Of a stretch of 64,000 nucleotides of DNA, positions 10,481-28,357 are shown piece after piece (position 1 is the first letter of the stretch; every line of letters starts with the position of its first letter). Below the pieces are notes generated by a model that made no database searches, had not been told where the DNA came from, and saw nothing but the letters and a program-made list of their open reading frames with translations. The DNA lies in IMG/VR virus record IMGVR_UViG_3300028048_000055, positions 32,001 to 96,000 of that record; one strand, written 5' to 3'. The translations under genes were made by a program, and so were the position numbers. The DNA is from a virus (taxonomy: Duplodnaviria > Caudoviricetes).

Positions 10481-10542
10481 AATCAACGTAAAAACGAAAA
10501 ATGAAAAAAAGTTTTTATATATAATATAAAATGAGGATGAAA

Positions 10543-12541: not shown

Positions 12542-12660
12542 TATAGCATAGGTAGTTCCTATTACTAAGCGTATAGCTCAACTGGTGGAGCAGTTACCGA
12601 AAGGTAAAAGGTTGTCGGTTCGAATCCGATTGTGCTTGCCATTCGATACTACCCGCTATA
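12542..12660 (+). ncRNA. UCCUAU scaffold copy 2 carrying an anticodon-less tRNA mimic (GAAA loop, CCA end)
   Basis: TATAGC-ATA-GGTAGT-TCCTAT...TAC-TACC-C-GCTATA enclosing tRNA-like 12567-12641. Confidence 0.8.
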
Positions 12661-14981: not shown

Positions 14982-15902
14982 ATGTTTAAGAAAATTATCG
15001 ATAAAATTGAACAAGCAACCATCAATTATACGATTAAGCATAGGAAGCCATTTACTTATTACTTGAATAGACCTGACGGAAAACGTTGTAAAACCCGTCA
15101 TACATCCTTTAATGCACAGTCAAAGTATTTCTATGACGATAAAGGTCGTGAAATTGCATGGATATATTCTAATAACGGGAAAATAACTAGTTGTACTACT
15201 TACGAATATAAAAATAACGAGAGTAATGAACAAAGTAAGCGTTGGAAGCGTGAATTTAAAATTGTTGATAATAAGCGTGTTTTAATCGAAGATTCGTTAG
15301 TTGTTTACAATGATGATGGTACATATACTGTTACAGAAAACGGTATTACGACAACAAAACATATTATTAAGCCTACGGTTATTAAAGATAATAATGGCAA
15401 TATTATTGAAGAAAAATCATTTGACCCTGATGAAAATGAAGATTTTCATGCTGTAATGTCATATGACGAACAAAATAGATTAATTCGTAAAGTAACAACA
15501 TATACAGTCAATAATGTGATTAAAAACAAATATATTGATGAAAATGCATATGATGCTGAAGGCCATATTATAAAACATACATGGTATATGAATACTGATT
15601 ATGGTACTGATGAAAGTACTACTATTGACTATAATGTATATGACAAGAAAAATCGTTTAGTTAAATGCTGTTCACATACATCTTATAATAGAGCTTGTTT
15701 GGGTAAGCATAAGTATATAGATACTACATATTATAAGTATGATGAAAAAAATAATGCTGAAATAACTTTACATGAATATACTAATTGGTTATCTAAGTGT
15801 TATGATAAAACTGTAACATTGCCAAATGGTTATACTGTTGAATCCCATTGGGATCTTCCGGTTTGGCCTGATAAGTTGCGTCGATTCTTTGGAGCATATT
15901 AA
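14982..15902 (+). CDS. YD/RHS-like repeat protein
   Basis: repeated Y-D-x-x-G/N-R motifs. Confidence 0.6.
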   Translation: MFKKIIDKIEQATINYTIKHRKPFTYYLNRPDGKRCKTRHTSFNAQSKYFYDDKGREIAWIYSNNGKITSCTTYEYKNNESNEQSKRWKREFKIVDNKRVLIEDSLVVYNDDGTYTVTENGITTTKHIIKPTVIKDNNGNIIEEKSFDPDENEDFHAVMSYDEQNRLIRKVTTYTVNNVIKNKYIDENAYDAEGHIIKHTWYMNTDYGTDESTTIDYNVYDKKNRLVKCCSHTSYNRACLGKHKYIDTTYYKYDEKNNAEITLHEYTNWLSKCYDKTVTLPNGYTVESHWDLPVWPDKLRRFFGAY

Positions 15903-15904
15903 TC

Positions 15905-16507
15905 ATGACAGAATTACTGATTATCGCAAGTGTAATTACGGTTACAGTAATTCTTAGTTATTATTTCGGTATTCAGCTTTTATATAAGTATAGAAAAGGA
16001 ATAACGAAGATTCTTGGACTTATTACATTTATTTCTGTTATCGGATATGGAATGTATAAAGATTATCAAGACGAAAAAATTCTTGAAAATGTACTTACTG
16101 AAGTAACAACTGAAATTAATAGCACAGATAGAAGTATGTTAACTGATGATGGTTTTCATGAATTTGTGGAACATTTTGTTATGAAGAAAAACGACGTAAA
16201 TTTTAAAGTCGTTCCACAAATTGATACAGCAATTTTGAAAATCAATAAAGTCTACCAGAATGTACTTAATGACCCTGATTATAAGATTCTTATAACGAGC
16301 GCAAATGATTCGAAGTCACATTCGAAAAATTCTGCACATTATCGTGGTGAAGCAGTAGATATTCGTATCAAGAATATTGATCGACATTCGAAGAATGAAA
16401 TTATATCTACAGTTAAAGAAATTCTTGGAGATAGATTTTTCATATTGCATGAAGATCGAGGAAAACCCAATGAACATTTACATATTCAATTAAAAAATAA
16501 GGGTTGA
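15905..16507 (+). CDS. membrane-anchored peptidase M15-like Zn peptidase
   Basis: two N-terminal TM segments; SAHYRGEAVDIR and HLHIQ motifs. Confidence 0.75.
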   Translation: MTELLIIASVITVTVILSYYFGIQLLYKYRKGITKILGLITFISVIGYGMYKDYQDEKILENVLTEVTTEINSTDRSMLTDDGFHEFVEHFVMKKNDVNFKVVPQIDTAILKINKVYQNVLNDPDYKILITSANDSKSHSKNSAHYRGEAVDIRIKNIDRHSKNEIISTVKEILGDRFFILHEDRGKPNEHLHIQLKNKG

Positions 16508-16532
16508 CAAAGAGAATATAATTTACTATATT
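16504..16532 (+). promoter_or_regulatory. promoter of the scaffold/tRNA-mimic unit
   Basis: TTGACA-N17-TATATT. Confidence 0.75.
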
Positions 16533-16539
16533 TAACATC

Positions 16540-16608
16540 GTTAAAGCAAAGAATGTTCCTATTAATATCAAATTATTTTTAGCAGATGACAATACATTCC
16601 GCTTTAAC
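16540..16608 (+). ncRNA. UCCUAU scaffold copy 5
   Basis: GTTAAAGC-AAA-GAATGT-TCCTAT...TAC-ATTC-C-GCTTTAAC. Confidence 0.75.
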
Positions 16609-16612
16609 AATT

Positions 16613-16734
16613 CGACGAGTAGCTCAATTGGTAGAGCACATGTTTTTTATACCAACCGCTACTTGGCAAACTTGGTTCCTATTAATTATGGAATAGGTCC
16701 ATGGGGGTTGTAGGTTCGAGTCCTACCTTCCCGG
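16613..16734 (+). ncRNA. tRNA-like RNA with a circularly permuted UCCUAU scaffold (copy 6) in place of the anticodon loop
   Basis: D arm and T arm flank TACCAAC-C-GCTA-CT-TGGC-AAA-CTTGGT-TCCTAT. Confidence 0.65.
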
Positions 16735-16748
16735 TTATAAAAAATTTA

Positions 16749-16910
16749 TCGCTGAATGCTCTATCGTCTAGTGGTTTAGGACAGCCGGGGGTTAAACCGG
16801 TGAACAGTGGGTTCGAATCCCCTTAGAGGTAACTAAATATTGATTGCAGTCAATATATTCTTCAGCGAGAGGTATACTGATTGACGCCTGCAAACGTTGT
16901 GATGTATACC
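16749..16910 (+). ncRNA. tRNA-like module enclosed in a longer structured RNA
   Basis: TCGCTGAA/TTCAGCGA stem encloses a tRNA-like fold with an 8-nt loop; extra hairpins. Confidence 0.5.
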
Positions 16911-16941
16911 GGCGCTATTAAAAATATTTTAAAAAGAGGGG

Positions 16942-16970
16942 TTGACAAACCAAAAACTTTTTACTATATT
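16942..16970 (+). promoter_or_regulatory. promoter of tRNA block 3
   Basis: TTGACA-N17-TATATT. Confidence 0.75.
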
Positions 16971-17032
16971 TTAATCAAACAAAAAACAAAAACAGGAAAA
17001 AAATTTTTATATATAATATAAAAGGTAACAAA

Positions 17033-17140
17033 ATGAACAAGAACTTTAACATTGAATTCATCGCGATTGCAGCAGAACGTATTGCAGAATTTGCAGAACG
17101 TGTTTTTGCGATTGACAATTCAGTGCACAGGTTCAAGTAA
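17033..17140 (+). CDS. attenuator leader peptide 3 (MNKNFNIEFIAIAAERIAEFAERVFAIDNSVHRFK)
   Basis: 6 Ala, 5 Ile, 5 Phe, 4 Glu; precedes Glu/Ala/Phe/Val/Ile tRNAs. Confidence 0.85.
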   Translation: MNKNFNIEFIAIAAERIAEFAERVFAIDNSVHRFK

Positions 17141-17170
17141 ACGAAATTACTTAAGGTATGAAGAATTTAC

Positions 17171-17205
17171 GGTTCCTGTGTATAACACAGGGACCTTAAT
17201 TTTTT
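17171..17205 (+). terminator. attenuator terminator 3
   Basis: GGTTCCTGTG/CACAGGGACC plus T-rich tract; GTGCACAGG (17123-17131) competes. Confidence 0.85.
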
Positions 17206-17215
17206 ATATAACTTT

Positions 17216-17289
17216 GGGACTTTAGAATACGTTAGCTAGTTCACCGCCCTTTCACGGCGGAGAATCGGGGGCAGCACCCGGAAGTCCTA
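17216..17289 (+). tRNA. tRNA-Glu(TTC)
   Basis: loop CTTTCAC; atypical T loop (GGCAGCA). Confidence 0.75.
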
Positions 17290-17297
17290 CTAATTTT

Positions 17298-17368
17298 GGG
17301 CTTATGATGTAATGGTAGCATAATAGCTTTGCAAGCTATTTGTTAGGTTTCGAATACCTATAGGTCCA
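17298..17368 (+). tRNA. tRNA-Ala(TGC)
   Basis: G3:U70, loop TTTGCAA. Confidence 0.8.
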
Positions 17369-17377
17369 CTATATTAT

Positions 17378-17451
17378 GCCGCTCAATCCGAATCCAGTGA
17401 TCGGACGGGACTGAAAATCCCAGAAGCTCAGGGCAGCACTGAGGGGCGGCA
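17378..17451 (+). tRNA. tRNA-Phe(GAA)
   Basis: loop CTGAAAA; atypical D and T loops. Confidence 0.7.
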
Positions 17452-17463
17452 CGAAAACATTAT

Positions 17464-17537
17464 GGGCCAGTAGCCTAGTAGGAAAGGCACCGCACCTGCA
17501 ATGCGGAGTTCATGGGTTCGATCCCCATCTGTGTCCA
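17464..17537 (+). tRNA. tRNA-Ala(TGC) with C33
   Basis: G3:U70; CCGCA-CCTGCAA-TGCGG. Confidence 0.8.
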
Positions 17538-17547
17538 CTAAATTTTT

Positions 17548-17620
17548 GGGCTCGCATGTACCCTGGAGGCGAGCTGGCCTTGCAAGCCGGCTGAGATGGG
17601 TTCGACACCCACCGGGTCCA
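17548..17620 (+). tRNA. tRNA-Ala(TGC)
   Basis: G3:U70; loop CTTGCAA; degenerate D arm. Confidence 0.75.
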
Positions 17621-17677
17621 TGAAAATAAATTTACATTAAGGAGTTAAAATGGGAACTGATATGTAAAAATAAATAT

Positions 17678-17750
17678 GGGCTTATGGTGTAATTGGTAAC
17701 ATGTCGGCTTTGCAAGCCGAAGAGTCCGGAATCGTCCTCCGGTAGGTCCA
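17678..17750 (+). tRNA. tRNA-Ala(TGC)
   Basis: G3:U70; loop TTTGCAA. Confidence 0.78.
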
Positions 17751-17755
17751 CTAAT

Positions 17756-17830
17756 GGGGGCAAAGGTTACTTTTCGCAACTTTTGCACAAAGAGTTCCTA
17801 ACTATATTGGTTCAATTCCAATAGCCTCCA
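17756..17830 (+). ncRNA. Ala-acceptor tRNA-like RNA resembling a tmRNA tRNA-like domain
   Basis: GGGGGC/GCCTCC-A with G3:U70 and a T arm; no D stem or canonical anticodon arm. Confidence 0.5.
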
Positions 17831-17840
17831 CTAAATTTAT

Positions 17841-17915
17841 GGGGCTGTAGCTCAGTTTTGGTGGAGCGGAAGACTGAAGATCTTCGCGTCGCAGGTTCGA
17901 TTCCTGCCGGGGGCA
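17841..17915 (+). tRNA. tRNA-Phe(GAA), mismatched acceptor stem
   Basis: GAAGA-CTGAAGA-TCTTC; GGGGCTG/CGGGGGC poorly paired. Confidence 0.6.
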
Positions 17916-17922
17916 CTAATAT

Positions 17923-17997
17923 GGTTCTATCGTCTACGGAAGGCTAGGATGTAACCCTCTCAAGGTTATGAATTTGGTTCGACCCCAAATGGAACTA
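17923..17997 (+). tRNA. tRNA-Glu(CTC)
   Basis: TAACC-CTCTCAA-GGTTA. Confidence 0.82.
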
Positions 17998-18007
17998 TTA
18001 AAAATAT

Positions 18008-18081
18008 GGGACTTTAGAATATGCTGGTTAGTTCGCTGCCCTTTCAAGGCGGAAAGTCCGGATCATCGCCGGAAAGTCCTA
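18008..18081 (+). tRNA. tRNA-Glu(TTC)
   Basis: paralog of 17216; loop CTTTCAA. Confidence 0.75.
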
Positions 18082-18090
18082 CTAAAATAT

Positions 18091-18164
18091 ATCCGATTAA
18101 CTCAGTGGTTCAGAGTGACGCTTTGACTAAGCGTAAGTCATAGGTTCGAATCCTTTATTGGGTA
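18091..18164 (+). tRNA. tRNA-Val(GAC)
   Basis: ACGCT-TTGACTA-AGCGT. Confidence 0.75.
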
Positions 18165-18168
18165 CTAT

Positions 18169-18245
18169 CCATAGGCATAACGATTGGTTTTCCGTTTGCC
18201 ACTCTGATAAGGTGGAGACTGTAGGTTCAAATCCTACCCTATGGA
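18169..18245 (+). tRNA. tRNA-Ile(GAT)
   Basis: CCATAGG/CCTATGG acceptor; loop CTGATAA. Confidence 0.72.
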
Positions 18246-18254
18246 CTAAAATAT

Positions 18255-18331
18255 CGGCAACTATCTCCTCGCTCTGATAAGGCGTTGAAAGAGTAATTGG
18301 TTACATGTAGGTTCAATTCCTATGTTGCCGA
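18255..18331 (+). tRNA. rearranged tRNA-Ile(GAT)-like RNA lacking a D arm at the normal position
   Basis: CGGCAAC/GTTGCCG acceptor, CTGATAA loop, T arm; a D-like hairpin follows the anticodon arm. Confidence 0.55.
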
Positions 18332-18352
18332 CTAAATTAAATTTTAATATTT

Positions 18353-18388
18353 AAAAGGATTGACATTAGTCAATCCTTTTTCTATATT
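18353..18388 (+). terminator. fused terminator and promoter
   Basis: AAAAGGATTGAC/GTCAATCCTTTT hairpin contains TTGACA; TATATT 17 nt later. Confidence 0.7.
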
Positions 18389-18395
18389 ATAGTAT

Positions 18396-19247
18396 ATGGG
18401 AAGAATTTTTAATAAAATGTATATTGTGTCTGGTGCGGTTAAACCTACTGATATATTGGACTATTATCGTTTTCAAACAAAGAAGATGTTAGATGATATT
18501 CCTTATGGTTATACTCATCAGTTATTTGATGAAGCCATTGAAGTTGATTCTACTGGAAAGCATATTGAATATGATAAATTCCACTGTGATAATTATTGGA
18601 CCACATCAGATGAAACACAGCTTAAAGATTTAAATTGTCATCGAGTTGCAAAGATTAACGGTGTTTGGATGACACTTGATATTGATCCGTTTGAAGACGA
18701 TGTAGTTGATTACCTTGAAGGAAATGGCTATTATCAGAAACTTGGTGAATATGGTTCAGGCTGGTTTGATAAAAATCATAGACCAGAATTTAAACAAGCA
18801 ATTTTTACGAGAATTCATCAGTCATTAAAATTAGAATGGGATTTTAAACATAATTGTTATGCTGGTATTGTTCCAAATATGAAAAAAGATGAACTTACAA
18901 TTTACGCTGGTGATCGCCCTTACAATTATAAAAAACAAATTGGTAATATTAAGGTTGACGGTAAAAAAGTAATTGTAAAAGTTAATGACGACATTTATGA
19001 ATTTGAAAAAGAAACTGATCAAGGCTTTATTGATTTCGTAAAACTTTGTCTTGATGCAAAAAATAAAGTTGTCTTTGGTCGTGAAACGGGTGAAACTGAA
19101 TGGGATAAGTCAGAATGGTCAGACCGTAGGATTATGACAGAAGCACGAATGAAAGCAAGGAATGTAACTCTCGATGAATTAACTAAAGATGAGATTACAT
19201 GGAAGCAAGAAGATTTTAACAAACTTTTTAATGCATATAATGAATGA
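18396..19247 (+). CDS. hypothetical protein (apparently leaderless)
   Basis: 283-aa ORF; ATG 7 nt after the -10 box. Confidence 0.75.
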   Translation: MGRIFNKMYIVSGAVKPTDILDYYRFQTKKMLDDIPYGYTHQLFDEAIEVDSTGKHIEYDKFHCDNYWTTSDETQLKDLNCHRVAKINGVWMTLDIDPFEDDVVDYLEGNGYYQKLGEYGSGWFDKNHRPEFKQAIFTRIHQSLKLEWDFKHNCYAGIVPNMKKDELTIYAGDRPYNYKKQIGNIKVDGKKVIVKVNDDIYEFEKETDQGFIDFVKLCLDAKNKVVFGRETGETEWDKSEWSDRRIMTEARMKARNVTLDELTKDEITWKQEDFNKLFNAYNE

Positions 19248-19353
19248 GTTATTTCTTGGTGAAATAGACGCCACAGTTTAAGTAAAAGAGATTAAGTAAT
19301 AAAAATAAGGATTGACTAATGTCAATCCTTATTTAAATTTTTATAATAATTTA

Positions 19354-19848
19354 TTAATTTCCTTCTATAGAATTACAAAAGCTATTAACGAAATTTGTTG
19401 CATAATCTTTTACTTTTGCTTCAAATTCTTGACTATCTGTATCTGTTAATAACTCACCGTCTTCATCATATTCTAACAGATCGTCGATTAAACCAGCACC
19501 ATTAAGTTCAAAATTATCTATATTTGCAAGGCGTAATAATGTTACGCGCTCACGTGGACTAAGGGTTTCTTTATTTAATGCTTTTTGCATTATTCGTATA
19601 TCAGCATCCCTATCTAAATAACACAACCCACCATATGTTATATCATCAGGACCATAATTAATAAAACCTATTACTTGTTTAATTAATTCATTTCTGTCTG
19701 ATGTTACCGCCTTGACATATGCCCATTCTGGTCTTTCATGTGCACGATCGCCAGATATTTCATAAAACATATATGTTGGACTATTATTTTCTTTAATCAG
19801 CTTATAGCCAGCAGATTTAAGAGTTTTTATAGCTTCATTTAAATTCAT
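19354..19848 (-). CDS. hypothetical late protein
   Basis: TATAAATA and AGGAG upstream on the minus strand; N-terminal MNLNEAIKTLKSAGY motif. Confidence 0.75.
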   Translation of the reverse strand: MNLNEAIKTLKSAGYKLIKENNSPTYMFYEISGDRAHERPEWAYVKAVTSDRNELIKQVIGFINYGPDDITYGGLCYLDRDADIRIMQKALNKETLSPRERVTLLRLANIDNFELNGAGLIDDLLEYDEDGELLTDTDSQEFEAKVKDYATNFVNSFCNSIEGN

Positions 19849-19901
19849 TTGATGTTCTCCTTAAATTATATATTATTTATAAAAAAAATTATTTTAGGGG
19901 G

Positions 19902-19930
19902 TTTACAAGAGTTAAATAATTTACTATATT
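19902..19930 (+). promoter_or_regulatory. promoter of tRNA block 4
   Basis: TTTACA-N17-TATATT. Confidence 0.75.
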
Positions 19931-19951
19931 TAACAACGTAAATAAAACAAG

Positions 19952-20071
19952 AATAGCAAAAGCGGTTCCTATAACCAGAGGAATAGCTTAGTTGGTTAGA
20001 GCAACGCAGCAATGCGGAGGCCGTCGGTTCGAGTCCGATTTCCCCTACCATCAAGTTTACTGCTCGCTATT
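19952..20071 (+). ncRNA. UCCUAU scaffold copy 7 carrying an anticodon-less tRNA mimic (GCAA loop, ACCA end)
   Basis: AATAGC-AAA-AGCGGT-TCCTAT...TAC-TGCT-C-GCTATT enclosing tRNA-like 19977-20050. Confidence 0.8.
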
Positions 20072-20121
20072 TTTACAAAAACAGGAAAAAATTTTTTATA
20101 TATAATATAAAGGTTAAGAAA

Positions 20122-21887: not shown

Positions 21888-22607
21888 ATGAATTACTTAG
21901 AATTAAATGATAAAGGTAAGCTCGGAAGTGATGAGCAAAAATTGGCCGACTATTTTGGAGTCGGTCATTATACTACATTTTATAAAAAGCATTTTTTACA
22001 AAATAAAATAAAACTCACTAAGGATGATTTTATTGCAGGCGTAATTCCAGTAATGTTTTGCGCTATGAAAAAACTTAACATTGATTATAAGCATGATGAT
22101 TATCCTGAACAGCTACAAAAATATCTTCATCGTAGAATTTGGGAATCGACTCTTGGTCGTATAAAAACTAGTGTCTTTAATGATTATCTATTTGGACCTG
22201 TTTTTATTAAACCAAAAGATAAATTAAAAAAGTTTACTGGTTTTGTTTTAAATTCAAGAGATGATTGGCTTCTTACTGAAGGCGCAGGCGATAGCACGAA
22301 AATTATCTGTTCAAAACCGGTAAAATGGGTTACAGAATATCGTATTCCTGTAATTAATGGCGTCGCAAGAGATTATTGTCATTATTTTGGAAATCCAGGT
22401 ATATTTGTAGATAAGGCTGTAATTCAAAATATGATAGGTGATTGGAAAGATTCTCCAAAAGCATATTGCTTGGATGTTGGAGTCTTAGATACTGGAGAAA
22501 CTGCATTAATAGAAGTTAATGATGCATTTAGCTGCGGTAGTTACTCAATGAGTGCTGAAACCTATGGTGATTTACTGACAACAAGATGGAATGAGTTAAA
22601 AGGTTGA
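21888..22607 (+). CDS. ATP-grasp domain protein (DUF4343/R2K-like)
   Basis: VFIKP...KKFTG, EYR, LDVG...LIEVND motifs. Confidence 0.8.
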   Translation: MNYLELNDKGKLGSDEQKLADYFGVGHYTTFYKKHFLQNKIKLTKDDFIAGVIPVMFCAMKKLNIDYKHDDYPEQLQKYLHRRIWESTLGRIKTSVFNDYLFGPVFIKPKDKLKKFTGFVLNSRDDWLLTEGAGDSTKIICSKPVKWVTEYRIPVINGVARDYCHYFGNPGIFVDKAVIQNMIGDWKDSPKAYCLDVGVLDTGETALIEVNDAFSCGSYSMSAETYGDLLTTRWNELKG

Positions 22608-22638
22608 CGAAAGTCAACCTTTTTTCTATATTTAAATT

Positions 22639-22953: not shown

Positions 22954-23017
22954 TAGGATAAAGGTTGACGAAAGTCAATCTTTTTTCTATATTATAATAT
23001 GGAATAAAGGATTAATA

Positions 23018-25314: not shown

Positions 25315-25376
25315 TAACAACGTAAAATAACAAAAAAGAAGAAAAAAATTTTATATATAATATAAAGGTTTAAAAA

Positions 25377-28291: not shown

Positions 28292-28357
28292 TAACAACGT
28301 AAAATAACGAAAAACAAGAAAAAACTTTTATATATAATAATAAAGGATAAAAGCAAA

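Follow-up and report, generated by a model that had tools for sequence, protein, structure and literature searches.

A putative leader-peptide transcription attenuator upstream of a tRNA gene block in an uncultured giant phage

Leader-peptide attenuation is the textbook bacterial link between amino-acid synthesis and tRNA charging, represented in enterobacteria by the trp, his, leu and phe leaders and by multivalent leaders such as those of ilvGMEDA (Ile, Leu and Val) and thr (Thr and Ile). In E. coli, the pheM leader attenuator of pheST controls phenylalanyl-tRNA synthetase and senses one amino acid. The T-box riboswitch binds tRNA directly, with neither a ribosome nor an ORF. The trn operon of Anabaena sp. 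PCC 7120 is a long tRNA array that is silent until induced under translational stress, and is controlled by TrcR, a repressor of the ribbon-helix-helix class whose binding sites are repeats over the promoter (PMC8421152, PMC10272220). The words attenuator, leader and terminator are absent from the 2021 paper of that pair. A full-text literature search for leader peptides or attenuation together with tRNA genes, arrays or operons and phage found nothing relevant, and a Phe-rich leader before the E. coli tRNA-Phe genes was considered and rejected for K-12 pheV, where the promoter abuts the tRNA and there is neither a leader ORF nor an attenuator. To our knowledge, leader-peptide attenuation of tRNA genes is undescribed, the regulation of tRNA genes being known mainly at promoters.

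Here we describe a cassette upstream of a tRNA block in an uncultured giant phage, whose host is likewise uncultured. Judged from sequence and comparison, the cassette is probably a leader-peptide attenuator of transcription, operated by the ribosome, that controls entry into a phage tRNA operon. Like the enterobacterial leaders, it has a promoter-proximal short ORF, regulatory codons, alternative 1:2, 2:3 and 3:4 pairings, an intrinsic terminator and a stop codon that adjoins region 2, and several amino acids would be sensed in one leader. Unlike them, it has tRNA genes as its output rather than biosynthetic enzymes, it addresses five amino acids through 20 of 23 codons, it is phage-borne and one of six cassettes, and it has no sequence or Rfam-model similarity to them. 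With pheM it would share the control of a component of the translation apparatus by decoding of the cognate codons, the output being tRNAs for five amino acids here and a synthetase protein there. With the T-box it would share the sensing of tRNA status, the choice between terminator and antiterminator, and a position upstream of translation-related genes, but not the direct binding of tRNA. The Anabaena array likewise consists of supernumerary tRNA genes that are silent until translation is impaired, whereas its control by TrcR is not specific to codons or amino acids. We regard the cassette as probably a case of a known mechanism, leader-peptide attenuation, directed at tRNA genes in a multivalent, phage-borne form.

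The window, by which we mean the whole stretch of 64,000 nucleotides that was analysed, covers bases 32001-96000 of a 165-kb IMG/VR record estimated to be 40% complete; the DNA is 32% G+C, and relatives with terminal repeats are 415-424 kb long. More than 40 tRNA-type genes lie between about 10.5 and 31.2 kb of the window, all on the plus strand, with endonuclease-like ORFs between them. Megablast of window positions 15000-20000 against GenBank phages gave zero matches at the DNA level, and no relatives were found with the neighboring 283-aa protein (18396-19244) as query. Relatives were instead reached with DNA pattern scans, which located orthologous cassettes in 11 viral and 15 metagenome contigs. 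The orthologous leaders from three such scans fall into only three peptide types, and the diversity among relatives is thus limited.

Several unusual tRNA-type genes lie elsewhere in the window. Two of them (16612-16735 and 16757-16831) have their own promoter (16504-16532) and no leader cassette; one of the pair is a Lys(TTT) tRNA whose anticodon arm is enlarged by an insertion of 48 nt, and the other is assigned by ARAGORN a four-base anticodon, GTTA, in an 8-nt loop, and could read quadruplets or stop codons. Two further tRNA-shaped RNAs (12567-12641 and 19977-20047) are given a two-base anticodon or no call by ARAGORN, and that at 19977-20047 sits between a promoter and cassette 4.

The cassette begins with a sigma-70-type promoter at 16938-16970 (TTGACA, 17 nt, TATATT; an 11/12 match to the consensus) that is preceded by a conserved G-run. 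In the 165-kb record the motif GGTTKACR-N15-19-TATAWT occurs 28 times on the plus strand and never on the minus strand, which marks it as a real promoter class. Downstream, the 5' UTR contains an A/U-rich element some 45 nt long (16985-17032) with a Shine-Dalgarno-like AAGG at its end (about 17022-17025), 7 nt ahead of the leader ATG, so that a short ORF with a ribosome-binding site lies close to the promoter. Such a Shine-Dalgarno-like 4-mer precedes 52% of the long ORFs of the phage, against a background of 10%. The 5' UTR element is near-invariant in cassettes 1, 3, 4, 5 and 6 of the window (16985-17025 here, with further copies at 10485-10535, 20075-20115, 25330-25370 and 28305-28350) and in the orthologues, and within this genome it is restricted to these cassettes. 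Whether cassettes or phages are compared, it is better conserved than the leader ORFs, and it could enhance translation, mark a processing site or bind a protein.

The leader ORF (17033-17140, plus strand) has 35 sense codons followed by TAA. The sequence-only reading had counted 20 of the 35 codons as Ala, Ile, Phe or Glu, and the recount gives the same figure (Ala 6, Ile 5, Phe 5, Glu 4), which the two Val codons raise to 22/35. These five amino acids account for 22 of 34 leader residues against a background of 0.306 in the long ORFs of the genome (binomial P = 4e-5), and at the codon level 21 of 34 leader codons are read by anticodons of the downstream block under standard wobble, against a background of 24% (P = 3e-6). 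The enrichment is densest in codons 5-27 (17045-17113), where 20 of 23 codons specify Ala, Glu, Phe, Ile or Val and are matched by anticodons present in the block (binomial P = 3e-10 against a background of 0.24). Within this stretch, two conserved CGT (Arg) codons count against a full match, Arg being served by another block. Among 382 short ORFs of 28-42 codons (ATG-started, six frames of the 165-kb record), only this leader reaches its fraction of the five amino acids, and the remaining five frames of the same DNA hold just 4 to 12 of them in about 35 codons, so the match is frame-specific. All six Ala codons are GCA or GCG, which fits the anticodon TGC, while GCT makes up 39% of the Ala codons of the genome; ATA is absent from the leader ORF. 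The leader is thus enriched in codons for the amino acids of the genes behind it, and a chance origin of its composition is excluded.

Folding of the leader RNA gives a minimum free energy of -59.2 kcal/mol (z = -6.7 against shuffles). The main fold is a long hairpin across the ORF in which region 1 (17041-17072, the 5' strand) pairs with region 2 (17106-17134), so that the 1:2 pairing overlaps the coding region and sequesters region 2. Past the stop codon is an intrinsic terminator (17171-17205) with an 11-bp stem (17171-17181 with 17185-17195, six G-C pairs), a 3-nt loop and a T-run to 17205. It is the best-scoring terminator-like site of the region in a terminator scan that found 20 such hairpins where 9.9 were expected, and it stands ahead of the tRNA genes. 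The sequence-only reading had also paired 17123-17131 with the 5' arm of the terminator, and this pairing was recovered: GTGCACAGG (17123-17131, within region 2) forms nine pairs, two of them G-U, with CCTGTGTAT (17175-17183, region 3, part of the terminator 5' arm), an antiterminator helix that is mutually exclusive with the terminator. When region 4 is left out of the fold, region 2 pairs with region 3. The 2:3 duplex has an energy of -14.3 kcal/mol, compared with -7.4 +/- 2.0 kcal/mol for dinucleotide shuffles of the 45-nt upstream segment, and a duplex as good arose in 7 of 2000 shuffles and in 11 of 3000 random genomic 45-mers. The segment 17100-17184 folded alone is unremarkable (z = -1.3).

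The placing of a ribosome on the leader was modelled with an assumed footprint of 30 nt, a model that is informative for the geometry only and not for read-through. With the A-site at codons 2-27 the 2:3 helix is free to form (P 0.63-0.99), and from codon 28 to the stop it is abolished; on this assumed footprint size, a ribosome terminating at the stop codon masks region 2 and a stalled one does not. The enriched stretch ends at this very boundary, between codons 27 and 28. The full terminator wins at equilibrium for every ribosome position (P(3:4) 0.87-0.98), and the switch would therefore have to be kinetic. In the trp leader, the complete terminator is also dominant at equilibrium.

The genes behind the terminator (17215-18331, plus strand) are 14 tRNA-type genes, and up to 18331 the block holds tRNA-type genes only, with no biosynthesis or synthetase genes. 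ARAGORN calls four Ala(TGC) tRNAs, Glu(CTC), Glu(TTC) and Val(GAC), and the Rfam tRNA model adds a Phe tRNA at 17844-17915 and an Ile tRNA at 18169-18245, whose anticodons (GAA and GAT, respectively) were read off the folds. Four more RNAs, all on the plus strand, are recognized by a cloverleaf-like fold or by a match to called tRNAs of the relatives: three that resemble Glu(TTC) (17215-17291), Phe(GAA) (17377-17452) and Ala (17756-17830) tRNAs, and one further Ile(GAT) (18254-18331). Standard tRNA finders miss all four, and the evidence for them is weaker. No anticodon types beyond Glu, Ala, Phe, Val and Ile were found in the block. The inventory given earlier from the letters alone (Glu x3, Ala x4 plus one Ala-like RNA, Phe x2, Val and Ile x2) was therefore right, with the caveat that four or five of its members are non-canonical and may not decode.

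The RNAs at 17215-17291, 17377-17452 and 17756-17830 keep the acceptor stem and an anticodon-like arm (for Glu, Phe and Ala, respectively) and have unusual T or D arms; all three fail standard tRNA models, and two have the T-loop GCAGCAC. The Ala-like RNA has a G3:U70 pair and gives a weak hit to the tmRNA model. Between two of the Ala tRNA genes (17640-17668) is AAGGAG, a strong Shine-Dalgarno sequence, followed by a 5-codon mini-ORF (Met-Gly-Thr-Asp-Met-stop). At L012:7729-7801 (minus strand), and at the same position in L047-L051, the orthologous block contains a tRNA with a 6- or 8-base anticodon loop that ARAGORN reports as '?(ga)', Ser or Phe, and that has no counterpart in the window's block.

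The first tRNA-type gene begins about 10 nt past the T-run, a space into which a sigma-70 promoter cannot fit, and an internal promoter of this type between the terminator and the first tRNA was ruled out on that ground; a promoter of a phage-specific type may lie inside the T-run. Behind the block, a hairpin with a T-run and the next TTGACA/TATATT promoter occupy 18353-18388 (plus strand; terminator-like 18353-18380, promoter 18360-18388). The hairpin probably marks the end of the tRNA transcription unit, and the first ORF after the block begins at 18396. Palindromic hairpins with the -35 hexamer in the stem, then a T-run and a -10 box, occur at 18353-18388, 19303-19334, 22598-22632 and 22960-22993; these intergenic elements look like combined terminator and promoter modules.

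Five further cassettes of the same build are found in the window, and the six tRNA sets jointly cover all 20 amino acids. The architecture and the 5' UTR element are common to the siblings, and the present cassette is distinguished by the largest block and by its set of Ala, Glu, Phe, Ile and Val. When each of the six leaders is scored for the amino-acid set of each block, the diagonal of the matrix runs from 0.56 to 0.68; this leader reaches 0.65 with the block behind it and no more than 0.21 with the others, and of 720 permutations the true assignment of leaders to blocks is the best. For five of the six, the segment upstream is more complementary to the terminator arm of its own cassette than to any other.

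Among related phages, leader composition changes along with the tRNA content of the block. Type 1, the type of the window, includes a near-identical variant with Ile 4 and Val 3. Type 2 (G002, G003, L010, L054 and L063) has Ile 4 and Val 4 with one GTA codon, and its blocks contain Val(GAC), Val(TAC) and Ile(GAT); the window type has two leader Val codons. Type 3 (the G001 type, seven contigs) has Ala 10, Phe 6, Glu 5, Val 2 and Ile 1; Phe, Glu, Phe, Ala and Ala stand in place of the window's five Ile codons, and the blocks contain Glu, Ala and Phe tRNAs only; BLAST with Val and Ile tRNAs from the window and from G002 gave no match in them. The sole Ile(GAT) in the 52 kb of G001 that were examined is in block 6, whose leader has four Ile codons compared with one in the window. 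In G002, the Gln and Cys tRNAs are in block 5 and not in block 6, and the leader of block 5 is richer by two Gln (CAG) and two Cys codons while that of block 6 has lost its Cys codons. These relocations of tRNAs with accompanying changes in the leaders indicate that leader composition follows tRNA content.

The correspondence has exceptions. In G004 (L012 = L053), a leader with Ile and Val codons is kept, yet the block ends after the Ala-like RNA without Val or Ile tRNAs. The Val-Val-Ile-Ile end of the block has been lost in this relative, and the loss looks recent from the sequences, since L055, with an identical leader peptide, still has tRNAs for Val and Ile. As a natural mismatch, G004 could reveal the pace at which leaders are re-matched. 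For Ala, a strict match at the codon level was tried across the relatives and fails: G001 and G003 have GCC/GCT codons without an Ala(GGC) tRNA, and G004 has an Ala(GGC) tRNA without GCC/GCT codons in its leader.

No orthologue interrupts the leader ORF or shifts its frame. Between types 1 and 3, indels within the ORF are 3, 3 and 6 nt long, as against 1-4 nt in the spacer past the stop. Close variants differ by about seven synonymous changes and five replacements (Phe/Ile, Ile/Val, Ile/Phe, Ile/Val and Glu/Val), and each of the five exchanges one member of the Ala, Glu, Phe, Ile and Val set for another, where about 27% would be expected from single-base neighbors (chance about 0.0015). Judged by these differences, the evolution of the leader ORF is of the coding type, and the leader is conserved in composition and not in sequence, as would be expected of a regulatory leader.

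Across nine distinct orthologous sequences, every cell (100%) preserves the 2:3 pairs and the terminator pairs. Neither the 2:3 nor the 3:4 helix showed a double-compensatory change in these nine sequences, where the changes are one-sided and wobble-compatible; they are compatible with both structures without proving either. Types 1 and 3 diverge strongly in sequence yet fold into the same ORF-spanning hairpin, which forms in all orthologues. The pairing of region 1 is worth -17 to -21 kcal/mol with region 2 of its own type and only about -10 kcal/mol with that of the other type, which points to co-evolution of regions 1 and 2.

The attenuator proposed in the sequence-only reading is thus supported computationally: each element that such a device needs at the sequence level is in place, and the leader set tracks the tRNA set in the window and in the relatives. 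The parts and their geometry, the frame-specific codon match, the co-variation and the coding-type evolution come from the sequence and its comparison, and from them we infer that the leader is translated, that the 2:3 helix wins kinetically during a stall, and that read-through then rises. Host RNA polymerase would start at 16938-16970, and a ribosome would load on the 35-codon leader. With quick decoding of codons 5-27, the ribosome would reach the stop at 17138 and cover region 2 (17123-17131), the terminator hairpin (17171-17195) would form, and transcription would end at the T-run before the tRNA genes. Were charged Ala, Ile, Phe, Glu or Val tRNA scarce, decoding would be slow and the ribosome would stall upstream, holding region 1 open; region 2 would then pair with region 3 (17175-17183), the terminator would be blocked and polymerase would enter the tRNA block. 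The tRNAs made would be those for the same amino acids, and decoding would be restored; with the output identical to the sensed molecule, the circuit would act as negative feedback on decoding capacity. Should the leader go untranslated, regions 1 and 2 would pair and transcription would terminate. The natural signal would be a loss or shortage of host tRNAs during infection, or a host tRNA pool ill-suited to the A/T-rich codon usage of the phage.

Other explanations of the cassette assign the decision, or the ORF, a different role. The ORF could be translated as a micro-protein, or could control the processing or stability of the tRNA precursor and not termination, and its coding-type evolution would suit either, as would the position of the leader a few nucleotides from tRNA 5' ends that need RNase P cleavage. 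We consider this unlikely, given that composition is conserved and not sequence, that five Ile codons are swapped where Ile tRNAs are absent, and that the terminator, the overlapping antiterminator and the position of the stop codon are left without a role. Slightly less likely again is a protein factor, such as a phage or host antiterminator or repressor, that decides termination by binding the A/U-rich 5' UTR element (about 16985-17025), with the ORF secondary. That element is the most conserved part of the cassette and is left unexplained by the ribosome model, and the stress-induced tRNA array of Anabaena is under a protein repressor (PMC8421152, PMC10272220), but a site shared by the cassettes fails to explain why each leader uses the codons of its own block, why leaders shift when tRNAs relocate, and why indels in the ORF keep the frame.

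It is very unlikely that the terminator is constitutive or leaky, serving as an insulator behind a strong promoter, and that the likeness between the ORF and the tRNA set is accidental. DNA of this G+C content yields many short ORFs, and terminator-like hairpins are common in the region at about twice the expected number (20 vs 9.9); against this stand the P values of 4e-5 to 3e-10, the single ORF in 382, the frame specificity, the best of 720 permutations and the co-variation of leader and tRNAs in the relatives. We give still less weight to a T-box-like riboswitch in which uncharged tRNA would pair with the leader RNA directly, a prospect we hold to be extremely remote. The T-box is established as sensing tRNA through the same choice of terminator or antiterminator, but the leader lacks the length for a Stem I platform, each of the five tRNAs would require a specifier codon of its own, and the signal here is a reading frame and not a single codon. 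Rfam searches at gathering thresholds gave no T-box, no Thr, His, Leu, Trp or Phe leader and no other cis-regulatory hit, and within 16500-18400 no match to the T-box (RF00230), to a leader family or to any other cis-regulatory family appeared at E up to 1.

With leader-peptide attenuation as the preferred reading of this cassette, the balance tips modestly toward a further proposal, that the six cassettes form a six-channel controller of tRNA supply for the 20 amino acids, in which each block is transcribed only on demand and selection re-matches leaders and blocks after any move of tRNA genes. Each channel would gauge the speed of ribosomes on the codons served by its own tRNA block. If so, the phage could make up for host tRNAs that are absent, that do not suit its A/T-rich codon usage or that host anticodon nucleases destroy.

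If the attenuator is real, the virus would gauge decoding speed codon by codon and supply exactly the tRNAs that are short. This would explain how very large phages can afford at least 40 tRNA genes and why these are sorted into blocks, and it would provide compact, amino-acid-specific translation sensors that, having a sigma-70-type promoter, could be tested in ordinary reporters. It would also give a handle on the purpose of phage tRNAs, as compensation for codon usage or as an escape from host defences that cleave tRNAs.
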